Origin: Candidatus Bathyarchaeia archaeon
Lineage (GTDB): Archaea > Thermoproteota > Bathyarchaeia > Bathyarchaeales > Bathycorpusculaceae
Length of the DNA stretch: 21,403 nucleotides
NCBI GenBank assembly: GCA_038883795.1
Contig: JAVZLK010000027.1
Coordinates: 1-21,403, forward strand
Direction: 5' to 3'
In this document: positions 609 to 15,653 of the stretch, in pieces
Numbering within the stretch: the first letter of the stretch is position 1
Layout of the letters: each line of letters begins with the position of its first letter
The notes under the pieces: model-generated
What the model was told of the DNA's origin: nothing
What the model saw: the letters and a program-made list of their open reading frames with translations, nothing else
Database searches by the model: none
Translations under genes and position numbers: made by a program

Positions 609-855
609 GGAAAGAATAAGCATAAAGGCTACACTAGACGAGAGGAGTTCATATGCCAAGCCACGCGCTTCTTCCTAAAATGGGAGTCAGGAGAATACGA
701 ATACATAGAAATCCCTAAAGAAAAATACGAAAAGCTGAACAAGGCAGTGAAAGAAATGAGAATGCCTTATTATAATGCGATGGAGTTTATTGAAGATCAA
801 ATAGACCCTCGAACAATACGAAAAATTCATCGAAGAAAAAGAAGAAAGAGAATAG
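609..855 (+). pseudogene. Degenerate gene remnant, possibly of an RHH-containing protein
   Basis: A purine-rich, coding-like frame with no start codon reads GYTRREEFICQATRFFLKWESGEYEYIEIPKEKYEKLNKAVKEMRMPYYNAMEFIEDQID. After a shift at about 807 it continues LEQYEKFIEEKEERE-stop (853-855). GYTxxEEFIxxA resembles RHH helix B. Confidence 0.35.
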
Positions 856-860
856 ACTTT

Positions 861-1355
861 TCATTCTTTACTGATTTTTTTAATAATATTTTCTAGGTCA
901 TCAGGATTTATTACAAAGACATTGGAAGCCCCGTGCAATATGCTAAACGCCTTACTTGCTTTGATGGACCTTTTCACGAGGTTCTCAACATTTTTTGTAA
1001 TTATAAATCCATAGTCGCAAAGGCGGGATAAGTTGGAGATATCTCCTAAAATGTATTTTGTCTGTCTATCCGTTAGTTCCAGTTCAAATCCAATAACAAT
1101 TTCCTTCTCTACATCCTTGTAAGGATCTAAAACACCTTGCCCCATAAACATGTTCAAAAATTTTACAAATTTTGGACTAGACCGCTTAAACCAAACAATA
1201 TCAATGCGGGGTATATAAAAATCCTTTTTTGATTTCTTTTTGAGCGTCGAAGGTGTCCATTCTTCTTCAACCTCAAAACCCATAATTATCCCAAGACGCT
1301 TGATTTTCTCCTTAACTTTGACCTCAAAGAGGGAATCAGCAACCATACTTCTCAC
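861..1355 (-). CDS. PD-(D/E)xK superfamily (restriction-endonuclease-like) nuclease
   Basis: 164 aa with GFEVEEEW...PRIDIVW...IGFELE motif order (E..D..ExE variant), followed by KYILGDISNL and a GFII strand. Confidence 0.65.
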   Translation of the reverse strand: MRSMVADSLFEVKVKEKIKRLGIIMGFEVEEEWTPSTLKKKSKKDFYIPRIDIVWFKRSSPKFVKFLNMFMGQGVLDPYKDVEKEIVIGFELELTDRQTKYILGDISNLSRLCDYGFIITKNVENLVKRSIKASKAFSILHGASNVFVINPDDLENIIKKISKE

Positions 1356-1513
1356 TTACACTAGGTTATAGAAAGACGTTAATGAAAGTTTTCCACTCAC
1401 TCTTTATACGAGCATTTTTGCTTAATTAGAAATTTTATTAAGTTCCCCTCATTTGAATTCTGAAGAAGTAAATCTTTTATTACAACTGTGAGTTTTTACA
1501 TTAATGATGCCCC

Positions 1514-2752
1514 TTGCAGGGTAAACAATCAGTTGTTAAGGATTTTCAGACAAAATTTCTCGATTGTTTATCTGATATAGCTTTAAGTCAGTTTTACTCA
1601 GCGTTACAGTCAAGAGACCACATATATTTTATAGTTGACACGGAGGCTCATGATAGTTCTGTATTTGAAGGATATATTGTAAACTTCATTAACTCAAAAA
1701 TTGGAAGGCCATATGTTTTAAGTTACGAAAAAATAGGGAAGGAAACATCATTCGCTAATACTGTCCTCCCATTAATATTCTTAAGGTCGGATTTTAGTGC
1801 TAAAATTGCGGAAAAATGCGGAGACGAAAAAATCACCGTGATTTTGAGGTCATGTATAAAAGGGTCAGGTCATTTATTTTACATTGCAAAAAAGTTTCTT
1901 GAATGCAGGAACTGCTCTCCGACGGAGAGGAGGAAACTAGGACTTGATTATGATCTATCAGATGATGATAATGCCATAGATTTTTTCGAGGAATGCTTGC
2001 GATTATACGAGAAAGCGTATGGCGAAAGACCGGCATTTATCTTTAAGGAGCTAAACCCCAATTTGAGAATTATGAGTTTGAATAGTACTTTAAGTTTTTT
2101 CAAAAGAATAGAAAGACTCCCAACGGTATTTTTCCTGATTATACCGAAACAGTCGGAGTATTGCATAATGCCTTTATGGGATAAGTTTCCGTATATAAAA
2201 TTGAACAAAATTAAACATGATGAAGTAGCAAGACTGATAAAAAGCACGATAAACGATGAATTTGCCTTTACCGACAGAGGTCTTCAATTATTCTGTAGAA
2301 AGATGCGTTCTCTTTACGGAAACGAAATACCATCAACACCCTTAATCACAGCTTTAACTGACTTATTCAGCTTTAAAAAAGCAAATAACTTGAATAAGCT
2401 TGATGTTGATGTTATTTTAAAATTTTTCTCCGTTTCTTTTGTCAAGATAAGACGACCCGTTCCAAGGCCACCTTCAAAATGCAAATCTCCGTATTTTGGA
2501 TCAGAGGTAGAGCGATTAACCAATGAATGTATTAGACTAAAATTAGACCCGCATACGGCGTTGCCGTTTCCATTTCGTTACGTGTTGTGGCATATCAAAA
2601 GAGGAAATATAGAATACAATAAAGAAGGAGACTTTTTTATATCTCGCAGATACATAGGATTAGAATTCAAAAAACTTACAAAAGTTTTGAGTAAACTTGG
2701 CTATAAATATAAGACTGGGACGGGGAAATGGGTTTTCTCTCCAAATACATAA
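1514..2752 (+). CDS. Hypothetical protein, probable inactivated AAA+ ATPase-like domain with basic C-terminal region
   Basis: 412-aa ORF heading the 1514-5970 co-directional cluster. No Walker A. PAFIFKE, YIKLNKIKHDEVARLI and FAFTDRGL occur in the same order as Walker B, the post-arginine-finger strand/helix and the YPFTEEAI/FPFTDDAI segments of the two neighbouring ATPases. TTG start uncertain. Confidence 0.5.
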   Translation: MQGKQSVVKDFQTKFLDCLSDIALSQFYSALQSRDHIYFIVDTEAHDSSVFEGYIVNFINSKIGRPYVLSYEKIGKETSFANTVLPLIFLRSDFSAKIAEKCGDEKITVILRSCIKGSGHLFYIAKKFLECRNCSPTERRKLGLDYDLSDDDNAIDFFEECLRLYEKAYGERPAFIFKELNPNLRIMSLNSTLSFFKRIERLPTVFFLIIPKQSEYCIMPLWDKFPYIKLNKIKHDEVARLIKSTINDEFAFTDRGLQLFCRKMRSLYGNEIPSTPLITALTDLFSFKKANNLNKLDVDVILKFFSVSFVKIRRPVPRPPSKCKSPYFGSEVERLTNECIRLKLDPHTALPFPFRYVLWHIKRGNIEYNKEGDFFISRRYIGLEFKKLTKVLSKLGYKYKTGTGKWVFSPNT

Positions 2753-2815
2753 AATTCGGTTCTAAATTGTAAGAGATTCTGAATTTTGCTTCCAAAAAAT
2801 TAATCTTGTATCATC

Positions 2816-4312
2816 GTGTCTTATATAACGAGGTTTATGGAATCTATAAAGGGGAAATTTTCTCCTGCGATATACATTAAATCCACAAAAGAACTTATAA
2901 TTGATCCAAGAGCTGTTCATGGAAGAAACATTATCTTATGCCAGTCTGAGGAAAAAATCGATAGAGATTCTTTAATTTTCTTAGGTAAAGTCCTGGATCA
3001 TACCCCAGTAGTCGATTTTTTTGGATATAATGTTTGGTTGGATGTTAGCTACCCCTATGTCATTATGGTACCTGGAAGAAGGGGTACCGGAAAGAGTTAT
3101 ACTTTGGGGGTTATAGCTGAAGGATTGGCGCTTACAAAGCATAAATCTCCGGTAACGACTAAATCTAAGAGTCACTGCGTTGTTATAATAGATACGTTAG
3201 GGCAGTTTTGGCAAATGAAATATAAACCCACTCCAAACGATGAGGAAGGAAAAAGACAACTGGAGTTATTAAAATCATGGGATTTAGAACCCACCGCAAT
3301 TGATAATGTACAAGTGTTTGTGCCACGAGGAACCAAACTGATGGATAGTTGGAAAGAATTGTCAATAAACTTTTCCGAAGTAGAGGTCTCGGAATTAGCT
3401 GGGCTTTTAGATGTCGACCTATATCAAGACCGAATGGGACAACTTCTTTTACACGTATACACTAAAACTAAAGAAGAGGGATATTATAGCGCTATAATAT
3501 CTGAACAAACGGGTGAACCAATAAAAAAGGAATTCGTACCGCCTAAACATAACATTGATATCGATTCATTAATAAAATGCATAGATAGCGATTATGATGT
3601 CCTTTCTAGATCTTCTGGATTTGAAATCCAAACGCGTAGGGCTTTAAAAAGTCGTTTAATGGCTATGCGTAAATGGAAAGTATTCGCTGAGAAGGGTACA
3701 CCTATTTCTGAAATATGTAAAGAAGGAATGGTTTCGATCATAAACTTGGAAGGTGTTGATGAAGATCTCAGGAATTTGATTGTAGCTGTTCTCGTAAGGA
3801 AAATTTTCCAAGCCAGAGAGATTACCCGAAAAATGGAAAAACTTTCTGAAGCAAAAGGAGAGCAAATTTCAAGAGATGCGAACGTAAGAATCCCCCCGGT
3901 TTGGTTAATCATAGACGAAGCGCATGAATATTGTCCCGCCACTGGTCGAACCGCTGCAAAGGAACCTTTGATTCGTTTTGCGAAAGAGGGAAGGAGTTTG
4001 GGTTTAGGGTTAGTAATGGCAACACAACAACCGTCTGCTCTTTCTCCCAAAATATCGTCACAAGTAGAAATAATCATAGGTCATGCTTTGGCGTTTTCGC
4101 GTGATATTGAGGCCTTTGAGGATAGGCTAGTTAATATAAAGGTTGATGAATATCAGGGAAAAAGTAGAACTCTGACTTTCGCTGAGCAAATCAGATTGCT
4201 TCCGCCAGGAACAGCTATTGTATCAGCGATGAACGTATCCTCAACTTTCTTGATGACCCTTCGTCCAAGATTAACATTACATGGTGGAAAAGCGCCAAAG
4301 ATGGTTTATTAA
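2816..4312 (+). CDS. HerA/FtsK-superfamily ATPase (DUF87/DUF853-like)
   Basis: Walker A GRRGTGKS, IIDTLGQF, Walker B LIIDEAHEY and the HerA-type KEGRSLGLGLVMATQQPS motif. Confidence 0.9.
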   Translation: MSYITRFMESIKGKFSPAIYIKSTKELIIDPRAVHGRNIILCQSEEKIDRDSLIFLGKVLDHTPVVDFFGYNVWLDVSYPYVIMVPGRRGTGKSYTLGVIAEGLALTKHKSPVTTKSKSHCVVIIDTLGQFWQMKYKPTPNDEEGKRQLELLKSWDLEPTAIDNVQVFVPRGTKLMDSWKELSINFSEVEVSELAGLLDVDLYQDRMGQLLLHVYTKTKEEGYYSAIISEQTGEPIKKEFVPPKHNIDIDSLIKCIDSDYDVLSRSSGFEIQTRRALKSRLMAMRKWKVFAEKGTPISEICKEGMVSIINLEGVDEDLRNLIVAVLVRKIFQAREITRKMEKLSEAKGEQISRDANVRIPPVWLIIDEAHEYCPATGRTAAKEPLIRFAKEGRSLGLGLVMATQQPSALSPKISSQVEIIIGHALAFSRDIEAFEDRLVNIKVDEYQGKSRTLTFAEQIRLLPPGTAIVSAMNVSSTFLMTLRPRLTLHGGKAPKMVY

Positions 4313-4784
4313 ATTGCCCGCTCCAATAATTTATCCCGACCAAATTCTAATTTGGACAGATGATATTCCCCGTCGTTTTGCCGACCTCCTCAGGACATCT
4401 CAACCGACTAATGTGTATATTTCTTCACCATGGATATCCGAATTTCCTAACAGTGCAATAGACTTACGCAAATTATTAATTCAGAAAAATGCAAGCACCA
4501 TAATTCTTACTAGACCGCCCAGAACAGAGGTCGCTAAACGTTTTTTGGAGGATTTAAAAAGGGATACCCGTACAAGAATTTATGTAAACAATAAATTGCA
4601 CGCAAAAATATACATAATTGAAGGCCCCAAGCATAAGTATGTCGTAATCGGATCTTCAAATTTTACTCAAGAATCTAGATTTAACTTAGAATTAGCGGTA
4701 GTTTTCGTAGGAAGTGATATTTTAACAAAAAGAGTAATATATGCATTCCTTGCTTACTTAAAACCAGTATGTAAACTGTGGTGA
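4281..4784 (+). CDS. Phospholipase D-family (single HKD) nuclease, DpdK/Nuc-like
   Basis: ISSPWI, LHAKIYIIE, IGSSNFT and NLE motifs. The real start may be the in-frame TTG at 4314, just after the HerA stop. Confidence 0.85.
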   Translation: MVEKRQRWFIKLPAPIIYPDQILIWTDDIPRRFADLLRTSQPTNVYISSPWISEFPNSAIDLRKLLIQKNASTIILTRPPRTEVAKRFLEDLKRDTRTRIYVNNKLHAKIYIIEGPKHKYVVIGSSNFTQESRFNLELAVVFVGSDILTKRVIYAFLAYLKPVCKLW

Positions 4785-4791
4785 ATTCCAA

Positions 4792-5970
4792 GTGAAAGCC
4801 TCTGATTATGGTTTAAAGCGCCCCTCATTTCAACTTGATCCGGAATTAGATGCAGAAATTTTTGTTGGACGTGACGATGTTAAGGATCGTTTAGAAAATA
4901 GGTTGAGACGTGCTATTGCAACCGGGACAAGTTTGCACACTGTAATATATGGTGACTACGGATCGGGGAAAACACACACACTAAATTATGTTTATAAATT
5001 CTTGCATCAGCAAAAACTTAATGTCATACCCATATTTGTTCGATCACCTCGGATAACAAAAAAGTCTGATCCATCGCACTTATATGCAAGTATAATTAAC
5101 GCGTTATCCATGACGGAAATCTTTGATCTTTTTGTCAAGATATACGATTCTGTTCAAGATAGAATAAAAGATATACCCGACCTATATAAACGGGTTGATA
5201 TATTGCGCTCTCAAATAGGAAATCGAGATCTGGCTTTTGTTGTGTATAGATACGTTACTACACGACCAACAGAAGACTATCTGGTTGTAAAATGGCTATC
5301 TGGAGAAAAACTTTCAGCCAGGGAAAAGGCAACATTAAACGTAATTTCGGATAACTCAGACCCATTTAATGCAGCACAGACGCTTTTAACCCTTTTCAGA
5401 CTATTTAGTAAATTTGCTGGAAAATATGTGTTATTAATGTTGGATGAAATGGAGTCTATTGCAGTTTTAGGCGACCGCCGAAAAGAGCTTGAGTTCCAAG
5501 AGTTCCTACGAATTTTAGTGGACGAAACTAGAAATGTAGGCGTCTTTATAGCATTTACAACGAAGTTAGGGTTGGAAGACGCACCAGAAATATTTAAATC
5601 CACATCGCCGGTTGGAAGCAGAATAGGATACCCGCAAAACTATATATGGTTAAAAGAATTTAACGAAATAGACCTTACCAAAAACTTTGTTAGAGAACTA
5701 ATTAAATCTCTCCGCGACGATAGAATTGACGTTTCCAAATTGGTTAAAAAATATCAAACCGAAACGACAGAAACTCTTAATGTTGATTTTTACCCCTTTA
5801 CCGAAGAGGCTATCGAAGTGATGTTTGAAATGTCCACACAAAGCGGACAAGTTAAACCACTTTTACCTAGAGATATCCAAAAAGCATTGACGGACGCCTT
5901 AGGAGATGCAATGATTCAGAATAAACCATTTGTCGATTCAGAAATTATGACTCGAATAATGTCAACCTAA
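4792..5970 (+). CDS. AAA+ ATPase, BrxD/DUF2791/DpdH-like (paralog 1)
   Basis: FVGRD, Walker A GDYGSGKTHTL, KWLSGE, Walker B LLMLDEME, GSRI, YPFTEEAI, PRDI. Confidence 0.85.
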   Translation: MKASDYGLKRPSFQLDPELDAEIFVGRDDVKDRLENRLRRAIATGTSLHTVIYGDYGSGKTHTLNYVYKFLHQQKLNVIPIFVRSPRITKKSDPSHLYASIINALSMTEIFDLFVKIYDSVQDRIKDIPDLYKRVDILRSQIGNRDLAFVVYRYVTTRPTEDYLVVKWLSGEKLSAREKATLNVISDNSDPFNAAQTLLTLFRLFSKFAGKYVLLMLDEMESIAVLGDRRKELEFQEFLRILVDETRNVGVFIAFTTKLGLEDAPEIFKSTSPVGSRIGYPQNYIWLKEFNEIDLTKNFVRELIKSLRDDRIDVSKLVKKYQTETTETLNVDFYPFTEEAIEVMFEMSTQSGQVKPLLPRDIQKALTDALGDAMIQNKPFVDSEIMTRIMST

Positions 5971-5977
5971 ATTTAGT

Positions 5978-7099
5978 TTAGGCATGTATATACCTTCGGC
6001 CAGGAACGGTAAGCGAATATTTCAGTCCCTTGGATTTAGCTAACCTTTTCACGAATTCCTCATAAGTTTCAAAATCTAAACAACTATAGCTGTTTAAGGC
6101 AAATGCCGCGCACGCCAAAAATACACTCTCATATGGAATAAGGATTAGCCCTATTGATCTAAAAAAATTTAGCACACGGAAGAAAATTTTATCGAATTCT
6201 TCTTCTGATATTTCAGCCAAACCACTATTAAACGATTTTGAAAGCAAGATTGACCATTTTCTTTCTTTTTCGTCTAGCAAAAGTCTCAAATGCTTATCGT
6301 CAGAATCTAAAAATGCTACCTGCAACTTTCTTCCAATATCACTTAATGAGTAACCCGAGTCATTTTTCTTTAGTACTCCCACATCAAGTAAGAAATTTAG
6401 TCGTGGTTCTACCTGCATTTCCTTATGCAAAATTGAAGCTTGCCCATCTACGCTTTTTCTTTTAAACCTCGCGCTTTCTGCTAAATATAGGCTTTTTAGA
6501 GATGAAATGGTTTCTATTTTTGCTTTCCTCTCAAACCATTGGACAACCTTTTCGAAATACTCTCCAACTAGTTCAGATCTCGTTTTGGTTGAGTTGTCAA
6601 AACAACATAATAAAGGAACTATACCGTCAATGTCGGAATACAATAAAGAATCGCAAAAAATTAACCTTTCACCTAAAGAGAGACGTGCAATCAATCCCTT
6701 TGTTTTGAACAAGGTTTCCCGCATCTGGACATCAAGAGATATAGCCCTCCCCTCTGGTGTTGTGTATAAGGCAGATAATATTTGGCCATATGTATCCCAT
6801 GTATTAATGTCTCTTCTAATAAAGTGTAAATTTTGAGCTAATGAAACATGGTTGATCGCTATAAAATCTTCAGAAGCTGGTAAATCTTCTCTTCCTATGC
6901 CTTTCCCTGCTACTTTTTCCCCCGTTTCAGGATCGATGTTCCACTTTTCTTTGTCTCTGTAAGTCTTTACAATTGTCTTATATTTACTGACTAATTGTTG
7001 CGTATATGTAAAGGATGATGGATAGGTAAGGAAAACTATAACTTTTATAAAACCCAATCTCCGTAGATCAGAACTTAAATTTAAATTCCCTCGGATCAA
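5978..7099 (-). CDS. Hypothetical protein with probable winged-helix domains
   Basis: 373-aa ORF. Segments HVSLAQNLHFI..NTWDTYG and EPRLNFLLDVGVLKKNDSGYSLSDIG match the wHTH recognition helix + wing pattern. Confidence 0.55.
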   Translation of the reverse strand: MIRGNLNLSSDLRRLGFIKVIVFLTYPSSFTYTQQLVSKYKTIVKTYRDKEKWNIDPETGEKVAGKGIGREDLPASEDFIAINHVSLAQNLHFIRRDINTWDTYGQILSALYTTPEGRAISLDVQMRETLFKTKGLIARLSLGERLIFCDSLLYSDIDGIVPLLCCFDNSTKTRSELVGEYFEKVVQWFERKAKIETISSLKSLYLAESARFKRKSVDGQASILHKEMQVEPRLNFLLDVGVLKKNDSGYSLSDIGRKLQVAFLDSDDKHLRLLLDEKERKWSILLSKSFNSGLAEISEEEFDKIFFRVLNFFRSIGLILIPYESVFLACAAFALNSYSCLDFETYEEFVKRLAKSKGLKYSLTVPGRRYIHA

Positions 7100-7164
7100 T
7101 TTGCCACCACTATACGTTTCTTTATATTATAATTTATAAACCCTTTTAGATTAGTGAATGGAGG

Positions 7165-7704
7165 CTATTTGTCCCTTTGTGAAAGTATTTCTTCCAATCT
7201 CCTTTTCCTTAATTCGTTGAAAAACCTCCTTGCATCGCTTGGTAGCACAGTTACAACCGGTTTATCTTCTTTCCCTTTCGCCACTTTAACTTTCTCTGCG
7301 AGTTTTTTCTTTTCAGCATTAAAGCTAAAGACGAACTCTTTATTACATGAAGTTTCTTTAAGACAACCTAATCCATTTACGTTAATCTTTATAGCATGTG
7401 ACCCGCTGCCAATATCTTTTAAATTGATTGTATATTCCACTGGGAAAATAGTTTCCTTATTACTGCAGTGAACAATCGGATAAAATGACTTTTTGAGTTC
7501 CCCGTCAAAGTACATGTCAACTCTAATACGTACAAATTTTTCCCTTGAAGATGGTATCTTTATCCCAAATGTAAAAATTAAATTGTTAGCCCAAACTCTT
7601 ACCGCTGGACTAGTTATGATTAATCTTTTAACAACCATCTTTCTCACTAACTTAGAAAGGAATTTAGTTTTAAATGCTTTTACTCGCCAAAACAACATAC
7701 TCAT
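7165..7704 (-). CDS. Hypothetical protein, beta-strand rich (possibly Ig-like)
   Basis: 179-aa ORF co-directional with its neighbours; alternating hydrophobic strands (VDMYFDGEL; INLKDIGSGSHAIKINV). Start uncertain. Confidence 0.5.
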   Translation of the reverse strand: MSMLFWRVKAFKTKFLSKLVRKMVVKRLIITSPAVRVWANNLIFTFGIKIPSSREKFVRIRVDMYFDGELKKSFYPIVHCSNKETIFPVEYTINLKDIGSGSHAIKINVNGLGCLKETSCNKEFVFSFNAEKKKLAEKVKVAKGKEDKPVVTVLPSDARRFFNELRKRRLEEILSQRDK

Positions 7705-7785
7705 TATCTAAAACGAGATAAAGAAAAACTTGCAAAGAGACTACGTTGTTCTATTTGGGACGTTAAGCATTCCACATCCTCTTTT

Positions 7786-8754
7786 TTAATATTTGTTGTT
7801 TAATGGCCAGACTAGTATGTCCCATTCTTTACCAGGCGTTGTTTTTTCGCCTTTGAACATGAAATTTGTTATTTTTGGGCATACTGGTTTGAAGAAGCAG
7901 TTTGGTTGGCATTTTTTGCGTCTGCAGTTTCTGCCAGTTTTCCATATTGGTTCGTCCATTTCTAGTGGTAGTGTTTGCGTGTTTTCAGCTACCAACATCC
8001 AAGCATAATTGAATGGTTCGTTTAGTTCTGTGAAGGATCCTTCAAAATGTCCTTCTACTACCTTTACGAGTCCTAGGGCTATTCCTGCGCTGATGATATT
8101 TTTGTCTATTGGCATTGGAATCTCTGCCAGCTCATGTCTTTTGAAGTTCCACATTCCATTTCCAAGTTCGATTTCTTCACTTTCACACATGGTTCTAAAC
8201 CATAGTTTGATTACTTTATCTCCGTTTGGCAGCCCATTGTATTTTTGATCCTTAAGCCAATTTAGAAAGTCTTTGGCGCTTCGAGTCTTTGAAGAATTCA
8301 GATAGATGTCTAAAATTTTCCGAGGGTCGCCGTCGACTGTTTCCAATAAGTATCTTGCCGATTTATATACGCGAAGCGCCATTTTCTCAGGCGAGGCAGG
8401 CGCACGGTAAATGCCCCTAAAATGTTCCTTGAAAATGGAAACGATACGTTCAGGACCTTTTTTGACCAAATTTTTCGGATACAACTCCTCAAGGTGATTT
8501 TCAAAAAGCTTTCTTGAAGCAGACCATAAGTCATCAGCTATTGTCTTCAAATTGTAATCAATCAAACACGTATATGTCAGGTACAAAGCGTGTTCCAAAC
8601 TGTTCCATTCAACTCCTCTAGGAAGAATATGTTCGGGCCCACAAGCCAAACGCAGAAAATCCTTTTTATGTAAAAGGATACGCTGTGAAACCTTCTCTAT
8701 TTGCTGTAGATCAGCTTCGATGCAAAAAGAACCAATCCAGAAACGTTTAGCCAT
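7786..8754 (-). CDS. HhH-GPD superfamily DNA glycosylase-like protein with C-terminal 4-Cys (Fe-S) motif
   Basis: HhH-like GLPNGDKVIKLW, GPD-like IPMPIDKNI..LGLV, DEPIWKTG and CRRKKCQPNCFFKPVC. Starts 5 bp after the dpdA stop. Confidence 0.7.
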   Translation of the reverse strand: MAKRFWIGSFCIEADLQQIEKVSQRILLHKKDFLRLACGPEHILPRGVEWNSLEHALYLTYTCLIDYNLKTIADDLWSASRKLFENHLEELYPKNLVKKGPERIVSIFKEHFRGIYRAPASPEKMALRVYKSARYLLETVDGDPRKILDIYLNSSKTRSAKDFLNWLKDQKYNGLPNGDKVIKLWFRTMCESEEIELGNGMWNFKRHELAEIPMPIDKNIISAGIALGLVKVVEGHFEGSFTELNEPFNYAWMLVAENTQTLPLEMDEPIWKTGRNCRRKKCQPNCFFKPVCPKITNFMFKGEKTTPGKEWDILVWPLNNKY

Positions 8755-8759
8755 TCACA

Positions 8760-10481
8760 TCACGCAACAAACTCTAAAAGTGATTTTTCTGTCGGGATAG
8801 CTTGCTTGATAATGCTACATAAATCGCCATAACCTTTACTCTTAACTGTTATGAATCGTTCATCCCATAGGTTTCGAAGAGTTTCTCTGTATTTTTCTCC
8901 TGCTATAACTAGGATTGTTTCATACTTACCCAAGATGGGTTTCAATTTTTCCTCAACAATTGGGCGAATTCTTTCTATATCTTCTGAAGTCTGTAATACT
9001 TTCTCGTATCCCTCGATAATTTCATCTGGAAAAACAAGTCCGTATTTTGCAGAAATTATTACGTAGTCAAAGCCCATGCTTTCAGCATACTCCCTGACAG
9101 TTTTGAATAACCTACCTTGGTACATTTTCTTGGCAGGAACTTTTACTGAACTATTGTAGCCGAGTTTTTCTTTTGAGCATTCTGTTATGATTAGGACTTT
9201 TTCCCCCTTTTTAAGGGATGAAAGTTGAAACTCTGTATCTTTGTTGGTTTGATTGATGAAAATCTGCCATTTTTGTGGATCCTTTAGTACTTGATAGAAT
9301 ACGTAAGTGTTGTGGAAACCGCGGCGTCTGTTGCGGTTGTTTCCGCGGAATATTACTACTTCTATGCCGATTTTGCTGCATATTGGGCAACTGCATCTTT
9401 TCCAAGGTTTGTCTTCTAATGTCTTTCTGTAATATGATACTAGTTCAGTTTTTTCGCCTGCAGTTTTATAAAACTGTAAGATGGTGGATAATGCCTGATT
9501 GATTTCGGTTTCGCCTTTATCGTAGAGCCTTAGTTTATTCAAGCATTGCTGCTCTAAATTTTTCAAAAAACTTTCATTTTGTTCTGGTACTAGACTTTCT
9601 ATTACTTTCTCGCGTTTTTTACCTACAAATGGAATGCGAATGGCTGTGTAACCTTTCCCGTCAATTGATAAATAGTTGAGTTGTGATGTTGGAGCAGATA
9701 GCCATGCTTTACGAAGATATGATGCGGAATCAAAACCTACCATAATGCCTAGATCTTCTAATTCTTTAAATTTGGGGAACAGGGCGAATCTGGCTAGACC
9801 GAAAAAGTGAATGTATTCAGGGGATTTCCGATACTCTTTAATTTTCCTCTTTAACTCTTCGATTAAATTAATTATGAAGGACGTGGGTGACCGTGCCAGA
9901 CCGCCGAAACCGATGTGTGAAGCGCCTAAGTCCACATATTTCCTATAAAAGTTTAGATAATCTGAAACATTCCAGCCCTGAACAGCCATGATGAGTTGGA
10001 AGTCATTTTTATATCTTCTTTTCCACTCCTCAAATGACTTAAGAGCGTTTTCGAAGGTGATTTTCATCCTGTAGTCTTTTTGGCGTTCGTGTTTTGGAAC
10101 TACGAGGTGATCTACCGTAACGCCGTAATTAAATCCAAGTTCGTGATAATATTCCAGGGTTTCGATAGGGTCATACCGCGGACTTTCCTCGTCGACGTAT
10201 CCGAAAGCCCCGCAGTCGCCCATTATCTCAAAATTTTTGGGGAGACGTAAGACTTTATGGATGCCTTCCTGCTTGGCAAGCTGATACTTCTTTTTATCTT
10301 GCTCCAATGTTATTCTGGAAACCAAAACTCCATCTATGGGAACTTTATCCACTCCAAAAATATCCCAGATGTAGGCATCATTGTTGAAGGAGTCCAGTTT
10401 GTGCTCTGGGGAATGAGCATCGTTGATAAAGTCATAGCCTGGATCTACACGGTCATTCCATTCAGGTATGAAGTACTTCAC
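8760..10481 (-). CDS. dpdA: DNA 7-deazaguanine transglycosylase DpdA with C-terminal DUF6884/YaaA-like domain
   Basis: DpdA hallmarks: DRVDPGYDF, DGVLVSR, GDCGAFGY, TVDHL, VQGW, GGLA, HFFG, FDSASYLRKAW, YTAIRIP, PWKRCSCPIC and IFRGNNRNRRRGFHN. An extra domain of about 150 aa has IITECSKEK..AKKMYQGRLF..IISAKYGLV..IEGYEK. Confidence 0.92.
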   Translation of the reverse strand: MKYFIPEWNDRVDPGYDFINDAHSPEHKLDSFNNDAYIWDIFGVDKVPIDGVLVSRITLEQDKKKYQLAKQEGIHKVLRLPKNFEIMGDCGAFGYVDEESPRYDPIETLEYYHELGFNYGVTVDHLVVPKHERQKDYRMKITFENALKSFEEWKRRYKNDFQLIMAVQGWNVSDYLNFYRKYVDLGASHIGFGGLARSPTSFIINLIEELKRKIKEYRKSPEYIHFFGLARFALFPKFKELEDLGIMVGFDSASYLRKAWLSAPTSQLNYLSIDGKGYTAIRIPFVGKKREKVIESLVPEQNESFLKNLEQQCLNKLRLYDKGETEINQALSTILQFYKTAGEKTELVSYYRKTLEDKPWKRCSCPICSKIGIEVVIFRGNNRNRRRGFHNTYVFYQVLKDPQKWQIFINQTNKDTEFQLSSLKKGEKVLIITECSKEKLGYNSSVKVPAKKMYQGRLFKTVREYAESMGFDYVIISAKYGLVFPDEIIEGYEKVLQTSEDIERIRPIVEEKLKPILGKYETILVIAGEKYRETLRNLWDERFITVKSKGYGDLCSIIKQAIPTEKSLLEFVA

Positions 10482-10567
10482 TGGAAACCCTGTTTGCGCA
10501 AGTTTTTATTCATTAGTTAGTTATATGGAACGCACTTTTAACGTTTTGACCTGCATGGAAAAGAGGT

Positions 10568-10708
10568 TTAAGTTGTTTTTTCTTTAAAGTAATCAGAAAT
10601 AATAAATCTGATTAGTTCTTGAATCGTTCCTAGTTTCCTTTTTTGGCGTTCTTTTTCGAGGGCTGCGTACATATCGTCCGGCATTGACATAGTGAATTTT
10701 TTAGCCAT
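10568..10708 (-). CDS. Small ribbon-helix-helix (CopG-like) DNA-binding protein, 46 aa, absent from the ORF track
   Basis: Manual translation: MAKKFTMSMPDDMYAALEKERQKRKLGTIQELIRFIISDYFKEKTT-stop. RHH strand-helix-helix pattern; AGGTG Shine-Dalgarno-like sequence just upstream. Confidence 0.85.
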   Translation of the reverse strand: MAKKFTMSMPDDMYAALEKERQKRKLGTIQELIRFIISDYFKEKTT

Positions 10709-10718
10709 CTAAATACAC

Positions 10719-10778
10719 CTTTGGAATTTTATGGATGGAAAAATATTTATACATGATTACTTCTTTAGAATTCCAAAG
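10719..10778. promoter_or_regulatory. Divergent promoter region with an inverted repeat flanking a TATA-like element
   Basis: CTTTGGAATT (10719-10728) and AATTCCAAAG (10769-10778) are perfect reverse complements (12/13 when extended inward) and bracket GGAAAAATATTTATAC (BRE/TATA-like). Confidence 0.55.
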
Positions 10779-10801
10779 AGGTATAAAGAAGGAAGGATGT
10801 T

Positions 10802-11968
10802 ATGTTGGAAGAAAAATTGTTAGATTTTAAAAAAGTTTCCAAAAGCTATAAGGCATACGGCCTTAAACGAAACCCATTCCCGTACGTAGGAGTACCTGAA
10901 GACGCAGTATCGCTTTACGCTGATCGCAAAAAAGAACTGAAGATAATAGAGGAAATCATAAAATCATCGCTGCAAAATGTTTCTTGCCACGCAGCACTTA
11001 TAGGAAGCTATGGCAACGGCAAAACCCACACTTTAAAGTATCTAAAGAGACAAATAGAGAATCAGCTGGAAGATGTCGTTGTCATTTACATATCGAACCC
11101 AGGCGACCGAATACTGTCGCTTTACTCCAACTTCATGTATGAATTCGGCTTTCACCGCCTAGAGGAGTTGGTATGGAAATTTCTAGAATTTGCTACAGGC
11201 GAAAAAAGTCTAAGAAAGAAAGTTAATGAAGGGGAGGTTTTACTGCCAGAAATCCTTGAAATCGGCAAAAGAAGGCTTCTAAACGAAATAAAATATACTG
11301 ATTTTGCAATGGCTTTCCTAAAACTCACCATGGAAGAATGCAAGTTTCTCGCCTGGAAATATCTTTGCGGTGAGCCCATAATTTCAGACTACAGAAGAGA
11401 ACTCGACGTGGTGTCAGCAATAGACAATGACGAAAAAGCCTTACGAGCCTTTATGAGTCTAAAGAGCATTCTTACATTATTAGGTAACAAACTCTTATGC
11501 CTATTAATCGACGAATTTGAGGCCATTGAATATCTTCATCCAATTCTTAAACAGAAAATTCTAAACGGAATAAGACATCTAATAGACTTAAACCCGCAAG
11601 GATTCTGCCTAATTATAGGATGCGCCCCAGAAGTCTGGGTGGACGTTGTCAAGGAATACCACGCCTTCTCTGATAGAATCTTTAGACAAGTAACCTTGAA
11701 AGCCTTAAGCGAAAGGGACATGCGAGATTTTATCGCTGCCTATTTAAGGTCGTCGAGACTGGATGACGCTGATCCGCCAAGCGAAATTTTCCCATTTACT
11801 GATGATGCAATAACGGAGATTCATAAAGTTGCTGAAGGCAATATTCGACGGATGCTTATGGTGTGCAATCAAGCCATAGATGCTGGGGTAGAACATAATG
11901 CACCGGTAATTACCTCCCAAAAACTAAGGGAACTGCTTCCAGATCTATTCGAAACGGTTGAAGCATAA
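10802..11968 (+). CDS. AAA+ ATPase, BrxD/DUF2791/DpdH-like (paralog 2)
   Basis: YGLKRNPF, Walker A GSYGNGKTHTL, KYLCGE, Walker B LLIDEFE, SDRI, FPFTDDAI, GNIRR. Stop overlaps the next start (TAATG). Confidence 0.85.
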   Translation: MLEEKLLDFKKVSKSYKAYGLKRNPFPYVGVPEDAVSLYADRKKELKIIEEIIKSSLQNVSCHAALIGSYGNGKTHTLKYLKRQIENQLEDVVVIYISNPGDRILSLYSNFMYEFGFHRLEELVWKFLEFATGEKSLRKKVNEGEVLLPEILEIGKRRLLNEIKYTDFAMAFLKLTMEECKFLAWKYLCGEPIISDYRRELDVVSAIDNDEKALRAFMSLKSILTLLGNKLLCLLIDEFEAIEYLHPILKQKILNGIRHLIDLNPQGFCLIIGCAPEVWVDVVKEYHAFSDRIFRQVTLKALSERDMRDFIAAYLRSSRLDDADPPSEIFPFTDDAITEIHKVAEGNIRRMLMVCNQAIDAGVEHNAPVITSQKLRELLPDLFETVEA

Positions 11969-13038
11969 TGACGCATGCTTTTGAAGTAGAGCACGAAAAC
12001 GGACTTGCGCGAGTTGGACGGTTGAAAACAAAACATGGCATGCTATCAACACCAGTTCTTTTTCCAGTCCACAATTTAGGCGCAGAAGGCGGGTGGAACA
12101 CCCCAAGATACTGGGAAAAATTTCCCCACATCAACACAGCTATGTTCAACGCCTCACTCTTAGCCCTAAACCGGGGAGGACATTTAGGGACAATTCTACA
12201 AATAGGCGTCCACCGCTTCATAAGATTTTTTGGTGTAGCATTTGTTGACAGCGGCGGTTTCTTATACAAAAAACATAGGCTCGCATTCAAACCTGAAAAG
12301 ATCCTGGAAATCCAAGAAAAAATGGGGGCAGACATCGCCTCAACCCTTGACTATCCAATAAACTGCAAAATTTTATCCGAAAACAGCAATATTCTTCGAA
12401 CAGTTAACAACGCGAAACTAGCCTCTTCTTTGAAGAAAAACCCGGAAATGCTGCTTTTTGCAAGTATAAACGGCTATGACCCTGTTGTTGTCAGAAATAT
12501 AATAAAACATCTTAAAAAACATGGAAAATTTGATGGCTTTGCCATTGGAAGTTTGATGCCAAAATACGGCAGCTACAGTTTCCTTGTTGACACCATACTT
12601 GCTGCGAGATTAGAGGCGGGTAATACTCCAATCCACGTGTACGGGCTAGGAAGCCCGCTCATATCTCATCTTTTAATTTATCTGGGCGTGGACTCCTTTG
12701 ATTCCTCATACTTTATTGTAGCTTCAGGGAAAAGAAATTACGCCATCCCAGGTTTAGGCCGAATAGAATTCAAAGATCTATACAAATACTCCTCGTACAT
12801 AAAATGCGAGTGCCCAATATGCAAAACAATGCCCCTTTCAGAAATAAGGAGAAGTCGAAATCTTATAACATTGCATAATCTATGGGCATTGTGGAATGAA
12901 ATAGATAAAGTTAAAATCGCCATAAAGGAGAACAGAGTTGAAGAATATATCACCGAACGCCTTTCAAAGGCTAAGTGGGCGAAAGCAGCTTTTGAATACG
13001 CAAAACGCAGAGTTCGCTTCCGCTTTCCGGGTGGTTAA
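11968..13038 (+). CDS. Guanine transglycosylase (TGT family), catalytic domain only, archaeosine-TGT-like
   Basis: ARVGRLKTKHG..TPVLFPV, VDSGGF, TLDYP, FAIGSLMP, HVYGLG, GVDSFDSS and Zn site CECPIC...HNL. At 356 aa it lacks the C-terminal C2/PUA tRNA-binding domains. Confidence 0.9.
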   Translation: MTHAFEVEHENGLARVGRLKTKHGMLSTPVLFPVHNLGAEGGWNTPRYWEKFPHINTAMFNASLLALNRGGHLGTILQIGVHRFIRFFGVAFVDSGGFLYKKHRLAFKPEKILEIQEKMGADIASTLDYPINCKILSENSNILRTVNNAKLASSLKKNPEMLLFASINGYDPVVVRNIIKHLKKHGKFDGFAIGSLMPKYGSYSFLVDTILAARLEAGNTPIHVYGLGSPLISHLLIYLGVDSFDSSYFIVASGKRNYAIPGLGRIEFKDLYKYSSYIKCECPICKTMPLSEIRRSRNLITLHNLWALWNEIDKVKIAIKENRVEEYITERLSKAKWAKAAFEYAKRRVRFRFPGG

Positions 13039-13040
13039 TT

Positions 13041-13898
13041 ATGGTTGAAAGAAAAACCATGAGGCCAATAACCCTCAGGAGAGTCATTGAAATATGCAGT
13101 TTATCAACAAAGGATAAAGGGTTAACCGTGGAGACAGTGTCAAAGAGGCTAAATTCAAGCAGGTCAAGGGCTAAAGAGATGCTCCTCGAAGTTGAAAAAA
13201 TGGGCTTACTAGATCATTCCGGAAACTATTGGACAGCAAGCGAGAGAACCAGCAAATTTATAGAATATTTTGAAAAAGAGGAATGGAACAAGATTCACCA
13301 ATACTTTCTAGAAAACTACAAATTTTATAAAGAGTTCATCCAAATACTGCAAGGCCACATTAACGACCCGCAAGGTCTAAGCTTAGACGATATTGTTAAA
13401 GAATCCGTAGACCGTGGGTTACATTTAAACAAGACAGCGGTTGAAGTTTTAGTAGATTGGTGTGAACGACTAGGAGTAATTCAAAGGAATCTTTACACAG
13501 CCAAGGCTTACTTATTAAGAGATAAAATTGAAAACTTTGAATGTTTTCTCAAAATTTTGGTAAAAGTTTACCGCAAACTCGCATTTCCACTTTGGCGCAA
13601 AGAAGTTTATGTCGAAATACCACTAATTAGGGAAAACGTATGTGAAGAACTTAAAATCTCTCGAAAAACCTTTGATGATTTGCTAAAGGAGGCCTATTTA
13701 AAGAATGTTGGAAAAATCGAATTTAGCGGTGCACCTATAACTACTTTTGCCAAAAAAAGCCCGCTTAGCGAGAAAAAAATAACCCCTGTTGGGAAAGAGG
13801 CAATAATGTCGGCAAGATCCACATTAAAAAGGGAAAGAGAAGGCTTAACAATTAATAAAAAATCTTACTACTATCTTGCTATCCATGAAGCAGTCTAA
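13041..13898 (+). CDS. Tandem winged-helix DNA-binding protein
   Basis: Three wHTH-like units: LTVETVSKRLNSSRSRAKEMLLEVEKMGLL; LSLDDIV..LNKTAVEVLVDWCERLGVI; VEIPLIRENVCEELKISRKTFDDLL. Starts 2 bp after the TGT stop. Confidence 0.7.
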   Translation: MVERKTMRPITLRRVIEICSLSTKDKGLTVETVSKRLNSSRSRAKEMLLEVEKMGLLDHSGNYWTASERTSKFIEYFEKEEWNKIHQYFLENYKFYKEFIQILQGHINDPQGLSLDDIVKESVDRGLHLNKTAVEVLVDWCERLGVIQRNLYTAKAYLLRDKIENFECFLKILVKVYRKLAFPLWRKEVYVEIPLIRENVCEELKISRKTFDDLLKEAYLKNVGKIEFSGAPITTFAKKSPLSEKKITPVGKEAIMSARSTLKREREGLTINKKSYYYLAIHEAV

Positions 13899-13925
13899 GC
13901 TATTATTTACAACTAATAGCACGAC

Positions 13926-14597
13926 TCATTCTGTGAAATACTTTGGAAGCACTTTTAGTAAAGAAATGGTCATTGCCGCAGCTCCGACTGTTCCGACAAG
14001 CCTTTCATAAATCATTAGTGGGAGCACTCCGACAAAAACTTGCCATGGAAGGCCGAGTAGATGCACTGCGAATATCATCATCATCCCCTGCTCAGTCATT
14101 GTCGAGATATAAGTGTACAATGGTATCTTTAGATGTGGCGGCGTCATTCTCTTTAATGCGCTTACCACGGCAAAAGCTATAGCTACTGAGTGGGGTACGA
14201 TAAAGTAGGGGAATGGGTAATTTTTGATTAAATAGGATGTGATGGCCCCCACCAGAAAAATTGAAGTCGCCAATGCACCCGGCCTTGCCTTATGATATGT
14301 AAGGCTTCCAAGGGTTGCCCCCACAACTGGCAGCAAAATTGTGTAAGGGCCGAACATCGCCTGAGAGGGTGATACGTAGAGGGCTATGACTCCTCCAAAA
14401 AGTGAAGCGAAAAAGGCTTCTAATGGAGGCAGTAGAACTGCTATAACTGGAGTTATTATGAGGTTTAAAGCGAGAAAACTTGGTGCTCCTATGAACATGC
14501 TTATGGGAACGAGACTTGTAATCACATAGAGCGCAGCAAAAACTCCAATCCGCGATGCTTTAAGAGCATTATCAGATGACGATGTCCCTTGCTTCAT
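13926..14597 (-). CDS. ECF transporter S-component-like membrane protein (substrate unknown)
   Basis: 223 aa with about 6-7 hydrophobic segments. N-terminal IGVFAALYVI and PVIAVLLPPLEAFFASLFGG match the S-component helix-1 and xxLxGPxxG-type patterns. Confidence 0.7.
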   Translation of the reverse strand: MKQGTSSSDNALKASRIGVFAALYVITSLVPISMFIGAPSFLALNLIITPVIAVLLPPLEAFFASLFGGVIALYVSPSQAMFGPYTILLPVVGATLGSLTYHKARPGALATSIFLVGAITSYLIKNYPFPYFIVPHSVAIAFAVVSALKRMTPPHLKIPLYTYISTMTEQGMMMIFAVHLLGLPWQVFVGVLPLMIYERLVGTVGAAAMTISLLKVLPKYFTE

Positions 14598-14917
14598 TTT
14601 TTCACCTTTCCTGCCAGCAAGTCCTCATAAACACGTCTCATATGAAAAACAGCTGTAACAGTCTCTTCAGGCAATCCACAGCCACAAGCACCACACTTGG
14701 GGCATATCATCCAGCTGCATTTAACACAAATCTTAGCTTCAGACGAGTCAAAACGCTCTCCACACTTGAAGCAATAAACATGTGGGTTAACCACAAACTG
14801 CAAAAAGTTTTCAATGAGTCTTGAAAGAGGAATATGCTTTTGGTCTGCGACAATTTTAGCTTTACTTAACACTGTTCCATCCAAAGTTATTGTGAGCTTC
14901 ACTCTAGACGTATTCAT
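14594..14917 (-). CDS. RHH (DUF6364-like) regulator with Cys-rich Zn-binding C-terminus
   Basis: VKLTITLDGTVLSKAKIVADQKHIPLSRLIENFL followed by CFKC, CVKC and CPKCGACGC. 4-bp ATGA overlap with the S-component gene. Confidence 0.75.
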   Translation of the reverse strand: MNTSRVKLTITLDGTVLSKAKIVADQKHIPLSRLIENFLQFVVNPHVYCFKCGERFDSSEAKICVKCSWMICPKCGACGCGLPEETVTAVFHMRRVYEDLLAGKVKK

Positions 14918-14974
14918 ACGTATTCACACTTATTAGCACGACTTAATATGTATATAAAACTTTTTAACACGAAT
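14909..14974 (-). promoter_or_regulatory. Promoter/operator of the RHH-ZnF + S-component operon
   Basis: Minus-strand AAAAAGTTTTATATA (BRE/TATA) is flanked by related boxes TTAGCACGACTT and TTAACACGAATT; a tandem CGTATTCA repeat overlaps the start codon. Confidence 0.5.
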
Positions 14975-15007
14975 TGTTAAAAGTCAAATATTTAGCTAAT
15001 CTAAAAT

Positions 15008-15058
15008 CTAACTGTGGACTTTTTCTGTTATTAGGCTTATGCTTTTTGCGTATTCCAT
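15008..15058 (-). repeat. Copy 1 of the RHH-gene 3' end (17 codons)
   Basis: Minus strand reads MEYAKSISLITEKVHS-TAG, the same peptide as the end of 18549..18713. Confidence 0.9.
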
Positions 15059-15245
15059 TTCTTTCTTGTTATTAAATATGGAGAGGCTTAAGTTGATGAA
15101 GAGGTTATATAGCGAATTTGCCTTAAAAATGTAAATTTTGTCTTTTTTGTGTTTTTCGTGCTGTTACGTTGAAAAATGTGATAGAGGCGAATAAAATCGA
15201 ATAGGGTAACGCTTTTTAGTTCTTGATCATTTATAATTTTAGGCT

Positions 15246-15653
15246 ATGAATGACCAGGAGTGGCATTTTCACAAGGCAAAACAACTCTTGTTTTATTTTG
15301 GGATTTTCATAGATTTCATTTGGGCCTCAGTTTTGGTAATGGTGTTTGCTTTGCATTTCTTAGGCTATAATGTGCCGGAAACGCTAACATCGCTGGATTT
15401 TATGAATTCGGCTGTTGGATACTCTTTTTTAATTCTCTCCATAGCTTATCCAGTTAGGAGAGGCGCAAAGCTTTGGAAGCTAAGTTTAGCCATTAACCTA
15501 ACAATTGGACTTCTTGTGCTCATAGGGGGCGTATACAGCGTCATTTTAATGGAGGCAAACATTTTTACATATCTATGCCTTATCATAGGAGCGTTTACCA
15601 TCATGTTTAATATGAAAAATGCGTCGCATTCAAATGAAAAGTTAACTGTGTAG
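15246..15653 (+). CDS. Small integral membrane protein (about 4 TM)
   Basis: 135 aa with four hydrophobic stretches; TTTATA box shortly upstream (leaderless-type). Confidence 0.7.
   Translation: MNDQEWHFHKAKQLLFYFGIFIDFIWASVLVMVFALHFLGYNVPETLTSLDFMNSAVGYSFLILSIAYPVRRGAKLWKLSLAINLTIGLLVLIGGVYSVILMEANIFTYLCLIIGAFTIMFNMKNASHSNEKLTV

Follow-up and report, generated by a model that had tools for sequence, protein, structure and literature searches.

So far, 7-deazaguanines in DNA have been documented for the Dpd islands of bacteria, for phages and for archaeal viruses (PMC10164549, PMC6884629 and PMC10516641, in the parts used here). In this work we describe a locus at positions 861-14917 of contig C27 of an archaeal metagenome-assembled genome (MAG); this entire contig, 21,403 bases long, is called the window. 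The locus carries a DpdA fused to a DUF6884 domain, a second transglycosylase (TGT2) encoded with an AAA+ ATPase (AAA2) and a probable winged helix-turn-helix (wHTH) protein and, next to them, a module with a HerA translocase, a phospholipase D (PLD) nuclease and another AAA+ ATPase (AAA1). The observation of this locus is real and non-random. We read it as a mobile archaeal Dpd-like island that marks DNA with 7-deazaguanine, with the HerA module as its restriction half, and we give this full restriction-modification reading a probability of around 0.55. The modification part taken by itself, namely that the island puts a 7-deazaguanine into DNA, is very probable on the evidence of its sequences; the coupling of the restriction half to the modification is something that we infer from linkage only.

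Several described systems share parts with this locus. According to the sections of PMC12839542 used here, DpdC of the Dpd pathway is a DUF328/PF03883 protein that converts 7-cyano-7-deazaguanine (preQ0) in DNA to 7-amido-7-deazaguanine (ADG). The same sections describe BREX-related capture (BRC), which combines HerA/FtsK (universal) with BrxC/D-type ATPases, multi-wHTH proteins and a TGT and also occurs in archaea; its authors propose, computationally, that it marks self DNA by 7-deazaguanine, and in those sections it is reported without a DpdC homologue. Neighbourhoods of HerA/FtsK, an Orc/Cdc6 AAA+ ATPase, a nuclease and wHTH proteins have been presented as self-standing 'capture' systems in one part of PMC10853773. 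Finally, phages and archaeal viruses have DpdA pathways of their own, with preQ0 genes and the enzymes DpdA1-DpdA4 (PMC6884629 and PMC10516641, in part). Regarding a system with an archaeal DpdA::DUF6884 and a TgtA-core TGT, we found no description in the literature, where the supplementary tables of PMC12839542 and PMC10853773 could list some of the loci.

The genome to which the window belongs has 2.18 Mb in 81 contigs and is 87% complete. The ends of the contig are the ends of the window, so the sequence beyond it is not readable. The open reading frames (ORFs) were annotated by searches against Pfam, PADLOC, NCBIfam and the PDB sequences, and the Pfam scan took 20 ORFs of the window; the scores that we call "Atlas" are leads only. 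Between 861 and 14917 there are 14 tightly packed ORFs, g01 to g14, plus one small ORF (10568-10708). An earlier note, made from the DNA letters, had described them as divergent operons, and this is how they lie: the dpdA side and the AAA2 side are parted by the intergenic stretch 10482-10801. The genes around this stretch, each with the evidence behind its assignment, are the following:

8760..10481 (-): g09, DpdA (residues 1-400) fused to DUF6884 (residues 434-547); NF041059, 339.9 bits
10568..10708 (-): small ribbon-helix-helix (RHH) gene, 46 aa, upstream of dpdA; ORF and tblastn conservation
10802..11968 (+): g10 (AAA2), AAA+ ATPase like BrxD and the origin recognition complex (ORC), first gene of the AAA2-TGT2-wHTH triad; BrxC_BrxD, 4.8e-10
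11968..13038 (+): g11 (TGT2), TgtA-like catalytic core; Pfam TGT, 1.7e-38
13041..13898 (+): g12, 285 aa, probable DNA-binding partner of TGT2 and AAA2 with two or three wHTH domains; sub-threshold wHTH matches

The earlier note had made its proposal depend on these genes occurring together in other places, and we found them together in a second locus of the same genome, in archaeal MAG records and on 47 metagenome contigs. The second locus, on contig C10, is a diverged paralogous set whose identity to the window is 50% for TGT2, 40% for AAA2, 39% for g12 and 36% for DpdA::DUF6884. The remaining shared genes, which are listed further below, are HerA (34%), PLD (31%), AAA1 (29%), g06 (25%), g13 (72-75%) and g14 (62%). 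A scan of species-representative genomes for the DpdA fusion gave 73 loci, mostly bacterial DpdA alone; the fusion together with a TGT2-like gene was present in six archaeal MAG records (L008, L009, L011, L012, L013 and L027; fetched loci carry L numbers). L008 has a DpdA that is 93% identical and the same order, g13-g12-g11-g10 / g09-g08, L009 is 84% identical, L011 is partial, the record of L012 is labelled Hadarchaeota, and L027 shows 94% nucleotide identity to the C10 locus.

A second scan, of metagenomes, was anchored on AAA2 and was therefore independent of the transglycosylases. It yielded 57 loci, 47 of them strong. When at least 3 kb could be read on either side of AAA2 (n=12), TGT2 and the wHTH gene were present in 12/12 loci and DpdA in 11/12; the lone miss, L132, is a contig that stops short of the spot at which DpdA lies in the related L133. 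The strong set as a whole (n=47) has TGT2 in 30 loci, the wHTH gene in 32 and DpdA in 25, with most of the misses on short contigs (1-5 kb). When 400 other genomes sampled from the phylum were searched, the g12 family gave only partial matches of at most 39 bits and was thus not found, and because of this we consider the system to be a sporadic island. On 2.9 million viral contigs none of the 116 pattern stretches was confirmed as an AAA2 relative (0/116), and the only TGTs there had 23-33% identity.

The presence of dpdA, which had been claimed before, is well established. Residues 1-400 of g09 exceed by far the NCBIfam cut-off for DpdA (339.9 bits on NF041059, cut-off 200), match the PADLOC DpdA at 8.1e-90 and align end to end with a solved DNA-guanine transglycosylase (7UI4, E 1.1e-56). 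What had not been recognised is the fusion: residues 434-547 are a DUF6884 domain (68.6 bits, cut-off 30). This part also gives weak matches to DpdC profiles in PADLOC, over only around 55 residues and with E from 9.5e-8 to 0.005, and a separate DpdC is not present. Both catalytic Asp of DpdA, its Cys3His zinc site and the CxxxK motif of DUF6884 are kept in 22/22 fusions examined. The fusion exists in both orders, with DUF6884 C-terminal in the archaeal loci and N-terminal in four cyanobacterial loci, and the 969-aa DpdA of L125 bears a DUF6884 too (31.8 bits against the cut-off of 30). DUF6884 is described, in the part of PMC11701544 used here, as a distant relative of YaaA (PF03883) with a DNA-binding cleft and a predicted base-flipping mode of action. 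It is plausible that the fused domain performs a DpdC-like second step. With this DpdC-like domain on its DpdA, the system stands nearer to Dpd than the earlier note held.

The second feature absent from that note is the conserved 46-aa RHH gene. Its ORF is found by tblastn in the same slot of 23 loci with 65-98% identity, in two copies in L012, and matches the RHH_1 family at E 0.0055, below the cut-off. We take it for a probable controller or regulator, and it may act like the controller proteins of restriction-modification systems.

Regarding the second transglycosylase, the claim that it is distinct from DpdA holds. On the TgtA model TGT2 reaches 166.9 bits, below the cut-off of 350, and covers only positions 1-331 of 441. 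Against the archaeosine transglycosylase ArcTGT (1IQ8) it matches with E 9.7e-33 in the catalytic domain only (1IQ8 residues 10-338), and it is without the tRNA-binding C1-C3/PUA domains. TGT2 has 356 aa; the canonical TgtA of the same genome, on contig C3, has 543 aa and scores 567.8 bits. TGT2 is not the housekeeping enzyme. We also searched 20 relatives of the organism: 17 have one match over the TgtA cut-off and none (0/20), among them four of the same genus, has a TGT2-type or a DpdA-type match. In an alignment with ArcTGT, 32/32 system-linked TGT2 proteins examined retain the Cys3His zinc site and the residues that correspond to D95, D130 and D249; judged by such residues, both DpdA and TGT2 look catalytically intact. 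Within the pocket of these 32 proteins, Q169 is replaced by N or H (F once) and V197 by L or M (V once). The preference for preQ0 or preQ1 is governed by V197/V198 (PMC5699537, in part), and an altered base preference of TGT2 is for us a lead and not a finding.

The start of TGT2 overlaps the stop of AAA2. That the locus has two paralogous AAA+ ATPases is confirmed, given that AAA2 and AAA1 both match Pfam BrxC_BrxD and are 22% identical to each other; AAA1 also matches BrxD at 2e-9, and the AAA+ ATPases score below the cut-offs of the ORC models. The assignment of g12 and g06 as two wHTH proteins turned out weaker than claimed: g12 has wHTH matches at its N- and C-termini, all of them sub-threshold, as are the matches of g06. 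The profiles of g12 and g06 were compared with each other, with a probability of 21% over one wHTH wing only, and homology between them is not demonstrated. The g12 family has few members (52 representatives at E<=1e-30 among 1.84 billion), and none of the nine longest g12 relatives is fused to TGT or AAA2.

A third module of the form 'X-wHTH-AAA2' is found in L006 (G000:C10) at 829-4068 and also in L136, L137 and L138, where X is a 386-aa protein. We considered whether the X of C10 is a TGT and rejected it (hhalign 0.6%); the PDB gives weak PIN-like matches only. Since this 386-aa protein stands in the place of TGT2, the AAA2/wHTH pair seems to serve differing enzymatic partners.

The end of the AAA2 side holds two genes on the opposite strand which bear on the supply of the base:

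13926..14597 (-): g13, membrane protein like the S component of energy-coupling factor (ECF) transporters; Atlas 0.96
14594..14917 (-): g14, 107 aa, RHH (DUF6364) with a Cys-rich C-terminus; DUF6364, 1.9e-9

In some other loci the slot of g13 has a different content. In L099 it is occupied by FolE2 (208.3 bits), QueD (135.5), QueC (207) and a radical-SAM gene, and in L100 and L103 by a FolE2-QueD-QueC-QueE set (found with phmmer). In L012 the same slot, next after the g14 homologue, holds QueC (235.8 bits), a QueE-like gene of the radical-SAM type, FolE2 (227.4) and QueD/PTPS (93.9). Partial sets were found in L125 (three genes) and L126 (two genes). Overall, genes of preQ0 synthesis are linked to the system in six sister loci, which supports a 7-deazaguanine as its substrate. 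The slot is taken by g13 in the window, C10, L008, L009, L027 and seven metagenome loci. The g14 gene, with 59-93% identity in C10, L009 and L012, lies upstream of the S component or of the preQ0 genes and is a probable regulator at the head of a precursor-supply operon.

The earlier identification of g13 as an ECF S component stands as a lead, from its score to the 'ECF transporter S component' clusters; family searches do not add to it, as g13 has no Pfam match, so neither PF06177 (QueT/QrtT) nor PF02592 (YhhQ), and no PDB match. Its own genome has g13 at the two TGT loci and nowhere else, and BLASTP against the QueT of that genome detects no similarity (E 0.2). This QueT is a true S component (L186, G000:C6:70276-70755, 83.5 bits) and the same contig has an EcfT (L148, G000:C6:48810-49418, 120.7 bits). 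No QueD was found in the genome (87% complete). The QueC model matches there only the N-terminal PP-loop, in fragments that score no more than 25 bits (positions 1-61, 4-52 and 3-100 of 210) and are located in frames of 516, 517 and 284 aa. A tblastn search of the genome with QueC, QueD and FolE2 of L012 found nothing, and no ArcS exceeds its cut-off. With QueT and EcfT present and neither QueC nor QueD found, the organism seems to obtain its 7-deazaguanine by salvage, including what it needs for the archaeosine of its tRNA. In our view g13 would be an importer of preQ0 or of a close relative that belongs to the island itself. Rfam gave zero matches at the gathering score in the window and zero at E<=1 in 14400-16200, that is, no preQ1-type riboswitch was seen, and no tRNA was found in the window.

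The candidate restriction half lies at the left of the island:

2816..4312 (+): g03, HerA/FtsK-type translocase ATPase; DUF87, 1.5e-15
4281..4784 (+): g04, single-domain PLD (HKD) nuclease with a 32-nt overlap with HerA; PLDc_2, 2.2e-8
4792..5970 (+): g05 (AAA1), BrxD/ORC-like AAA+ ATPase of the HerA module; BrxC_BrxD, 6.7e-14
5978..7099 (-): g06, 373 aa, probable DNA-recognition subunit (candidate multi-wHTH); leads and sub-threshold matches

HerA and the PLD nuclease had been named correctly before. In PADLOC, HerA matches mad8 (1.6e-24), HerA (1.7e-17) and DndH (3.5e-7). The PLD protein reaches 23.7 bits on DpdK (NF041068, cut-off 100) and 6.6e-5 on the DpdK of PADLOC, with weak matches to ZacB and DrmC. 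This module stands beside the modification core in the window, C10, L100, L103, L109, L112, L113 and L118, in three gene orders. An AAA+ ATPase fused to a PIN domain (28.5 bits) adjoins it in L100 (680-2416, minus strand).

The g06 family is found in seven metagenome loci and C10. In the window type g06 is co-directional with dpdA, adjoining it closely in L100, L101 and L103, and in the C10 type it lies downstream of HerA. Its Atlas leads are FokI recognition domains (0.89), RE_AlwI and BpuJI_N, and there are weak Sso10a and HTH_45 matches. Distant g06-like proteins are present in 32/400 other genomes of the phylum, and those of 360-410 aa in the fetched loci L169-L177 lie directly behind an N6/N4 DNA methyltransferase in 9/9 cases. 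These nine pairs look like an uncharacterised two-gene cassette similar to type II restriction-modification. Because its relatives sit behind DNA methyltransferases, the family context suggests that g06 may be a partner which recognises or restricts by a DNA mark.

The rest of the island consists of a glycosylase gene adjoining dpdA and of three genes to which we could assign no family:

861..1355 (-): g01, 164 aa; no family
1514..2752 (+): g02, 412 aa, upstream of HerA; no family
7165..7704 (-): g07, 179 aa; no family
7786..8754 (-): g08, AGOG-like HhH-GPD DNA glycosylase with a C-terminal cluster of four Cys; AGOG, 27.8 bits

The HhH-GPD protein of the earlier note is thus confirmed: g08 passes the AGOG cut-off of 26.1 bits, and PF09171 is present in all 17 homologues found. 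The profile of its family matches the 8-oxoguanine glycosylase of Pyrobaculum (1XQO) with E 0.016, and its invariant Asp aligns with the Asp of the AGOG 'PVD' motif. The four C-terminal Cys are invariant in the family, which suggests a putative iron-sulfur loop. In L008, L107 and L133 g08 adjoins DpdA. In the 84%-identical orthologous locus L009 its gene is split into three frames (7689-8548) and has probably decayed. Glycosylases attacking 7-deazaguanine DNA have been shown (preprint 10.1101/2025.10.29.685425, in part); the role of g08 here might be editing, turnover or attack on differently marked DNA.

The proposal that a PD-(D/E)xK nuclease is encoded among these genes is not supported for g01, which has no match in Pfam, PADLOC, NCBIfam or the PDB. 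Among the fetched loci g01 has a single orthologue, in L096, and it is probably variable cargo. The sole PDB match of g02 has E 1.2, it has no family in Pfam, PADLOC or NCBIfam, and its orthologues are only in L100 (partial) and L111. No homologue of g07 was found in any fetched locus.

Taking these genes together, the system would work as follows. The host would be unable to make preQ0 and would import it, and the DpdA domain would exchange guanine in DNA for preQ0. The fused DUF6884 would hold the flipped base and probably convert preQ0 to ADG, as DpdC does. AAA2 and g12 would provide ATP-driven handling and targeting of DNA, the role of DpdB in bacteria, and would bring TGT2, free of tRNA-binding domains, onto the DNA, where it may write a second site or a second base. 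HerA, PLD, AAA1 and g06 would find, translocate and cut DNA without the mark, with an AAA+ and wHTH pair that mirrors AAA2 and g12. In this scheme g08 would be an accessory glycosylase, partner of DpdA.

To the right of the island the window shows other features. A 77-nt direct repeat occurs three times in intergenic sequence (15007-15083, 15708-15784 and 18548-18624), its copies being 61-83% identical to the reference one. The GC content climbs from 0.35-0.42 to about 0.5 in 16000-21403. A Hef-type helicase is encoded at 16155-18026 (628 bits on the Hef model), and the weak DpdF matches of the window belong to this gene. The stretch 18803-21401 encodes virus-like proteins, Phage_cement_2 and one of 604 aa; paralogues are present on contigs C31, C11, C77 and C26, so the genome may harbour several related proviruses or elements.

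Several observations weigh against the full restriction-modification reading. Some concern the material itself: the MAG has 3.4% contamination, and the public records nearest to its two loci bear differing phylum labels. Others concern single assignments, because the wHTH proteins g12 and g06 are sub-threshold, g13 has no family match, and a QueT is already present in the genome, so that preQ0 uptake does not strictly require g13. The remaining ones concern the HerA module. Of the 17 strong loci that span 10 kb or more, only 5 have HerA. The module is absent from L009, the nearest orthologous locus whose flank is long enough: nucleotide synteny of L009 with the window stops at around 7805, and beyond g08 this locus has other genes, which encode a wHTH-like protein of 459 aa, a Csm6-like protein and two AAA+ ATPases. 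Instead of HerA, UvrD-type helicase genes are found in 7/17 long loci, in four of these together with a PD-(D/E)xK nuclease. They lie directly downstream of the triad in L103 (13286-16476) and L125 (9596-12856), as a single fused protein in L125, and in the Methanobacterium locus L014 (6811-11740) the helicase and nuclease pair is directly upstream of DpdA; such a pair is a candidate alternative restriction module. Furthermore, in the C10-type loci an N6/N4 DNA methyltransferase adjoins the HerA module, which may therefore read methylation rather than deazaguanine. The effector is thus either exchangeable or merely adjacent. A constant core with an exchangeable nuclease and helicase or translocase partner fits the logic of canonical Dpd with non-homologous parts, and it fits equally well the simple adjacency of genes in a defence island.

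These observations lead to the rival explanation that survives best, according to which two unrelated systems share one defence island: a Dpd-like module limited to modification, whose function would be epigenetic, anti-restriction or protection of DNA, and a 'capture' system of the HerA/ORC type that works independently, without reading the mark. Neighbourhoods of the second kind exist by themselves (PMC10853773, in part), the HerA module is missing from L009 and from 12/17 long loci, g06 relatives pair with methyltransferases and the C10-type loci carry one, and both loci of the genome sit amid other defence genes. Nevertheless, the linkage persists across three gene orders and a divergence to 29-34% identity, g06 is tightly spaced and co-directional with dpdA in L100, L101 and L103, and the paralogous AAA+ logic is common to both modules. 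We consider this explanation rather unlikely.

Another explanation keeps DpdA as the only enzyme marking DNA and takes the triad away from it, with TGT2 modifying tRNA or another RNA or serving 7-deazaguanine salvage. It draws on the similarity of TGT2 to the tRNA enzyme ArcTGT, its nearest relative, and on a host that lives by salvage. In a quick tree of the transglycosylases, DpdA (archaeal and bacterial) is separated with support 100 from TGT2 and TgtA, which group together; TgtA forms its own clade (support 100), TGT2 falls outside it and its placement is not settled by the tree. The pairs window and L099, C10 and L113, and L129 and L133 are seen in both the DpdA and the TGT2 parts. However, the work on tRNA already has its enzyme, a full-length TgtA, in this genome and in 17/20 relatives, while TGT2 is specific to the island, lacks the C1-C3/PUA tRNA-binding domains and differs from ArcTGT in its pocket residues. 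Moreover, the operon of TGT2 always includes the genes of an AAA+ ATPase and of a probable DNA-binding protein, and DpdA accompanies TGT2 in 11/12 loci. We regard this explanation as very unlikely.

That the island belongs to a virus or plasmid whose transglycosylases hypermodify its own DNA to evade host restriction, as in the phages with DpdA, is very unlikely: it could call on the virus-like genes and the GC jump of the right flank, on the sporadic distribution and on the known viral DpdA pathways with preQ0 genes (PMC6884629 and PMC10516641, in part), but the Hef helicase gene stands between the island and those virus-like genes, on the 2.9 million viral contigs no AAA2 relatives and only distant TGTs were found, and the loci have modules with nucleases and translocases as well as a transporter, with no replication or structural genes within 861-14917.

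The earlier note had inferred a distinct 7-deazaguanine restriction-modification architecture. The recurrence of the gene set and its linkage to preQ0 genes sustain the modification side of this claim; on the restriction side there is the linkage to a HerA module that is not constant. Going further, we tentatively propose, as a possibility that we would hold below even odds, that this is the first cellular archaeal 7-deazaguanine restriction-modification system with two active DNA transglycosylases. DpdA::DUF6884 would write one mark, and TGT2, guided by the AAA+ and wHTH proteins, would write a second base or site or would act as a base-flipping reader that distinguishes marked from unmarked G for exchangeable HerA-PLD or UvrD-nuclease effectors; an ECF S-component family of its own, and new, would let the island work in hosts without preQ0 synthesis.

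If true, a recurrent cellular archaeal system would be a third setting for 7-deazaguanine chemistry in DNA, and a natural fusion of the DpdA-DpdC type would bear on how the two steps are coupled. The main point of interest is the purpose of the second transglycosylase, that is, why a system should need two active ones. In addition, g13 would be a candidate new transporter family for preQ0-like bases, one modification core with exchangeable effector modules would inform how restriction-modification-like systems are assembled, and TGT2, together with the pair that targets it, might become a tool for exchanging bases at chosen sites of DNA.

Comparing the island with the known systems, canonical Dpd (DpdA-K, Salmonella Montevideo type) shares with it an orthologous DpdA, a domain of probable DpdC-like (YaaA/DUF328) fold, a small PLD nuclease, the link to preQ0 supply, an ATPase beside the modification enzyme and the sporadic spread as an island. 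The differences are also many. Here the DpdC-like domain is a DUF6884 fused to DpdA, there is a second transglycosylase with a TgtA core, BrxD-like AAA+ ATPases and wHTH proteins stand where Dpd has the ParB-like DpdB, HerA takes the place of the superfamily 2 helicases, an ECF-S-like importer is present and the hosts are archaeal. The PLD protein, being below the DpdK cut-off, is a PLD nuclease but no equivalog of DpdK. As had been noted, the ORFs of the window do not match the canonical dpdB-K set. With PADLOC and NCBIfam we found no DpdB, no DpdD and no que genes in the window, and g01-g14 match none of the DpdD-DpdJ models. DpdB (NF041060) was not found genome-wide either, in a genome that is 87% complete and with control genomes likewise without a match, nor was DpdD (NF041061).

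With BRC the island has in common the HerA/FtsK translocase (g03), BrxC/D-type ATPases, candidate multi-wHTH proteins, a TGT and the occurrence in archaea; the DpdA::DUF6884, the second TGT and the PLD nuclease set it apart. PglZ, GNAT, STAND NTPase, DUF4007 and DUF6079 gave no Pfam match at E<=0.01 in the 20 ORFs of the window, and in comparison with the BrxC-like DUF6079 protein of BRC, g05 and g10 match BrxC_BrxD yet have only around 390 aa. The left module resembles the HerA-Orc/Cdc6 capture systems and DndFGH in having HerA, an ORC/BrxD-like AAA+ ATPase, a nuclease and a fast-evolving putative wHTH protein, and resembles DndFGH also in the FokI/DndG-like lead for g06 and in weak PADLOC matches to DndH and DndF. 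In contrast to the capture systems it has a PLD/HKD nuclease and not a restriction endonuclease, of which neither an active one nor an inactive insert was recognised, and unlike DndFGH it is linked to transglycosylases and not to phosphorothioation.

The viral DpdA pathways are similar in that a DpdA-family enzyme is clustered with FolE, QueD, QueE and QueC, as in the sister loci. Nevertheless, g09 groups with the bacterial-type DpdA, TGT2 is not of the DUF6610 (DpdA4) type by Pfam, and the loci described here are cellular and have restriction-type modules. Finally, the pair of AAA2 and g12 finds an analogy, in organisation only, in SspB-SspC of the Ssp system (PMC10853773, in part), where a multi-wHTH recognition protein, partnered by an ORC-clade AAA+ ATPase, guides a DNA-modifying enzyme.

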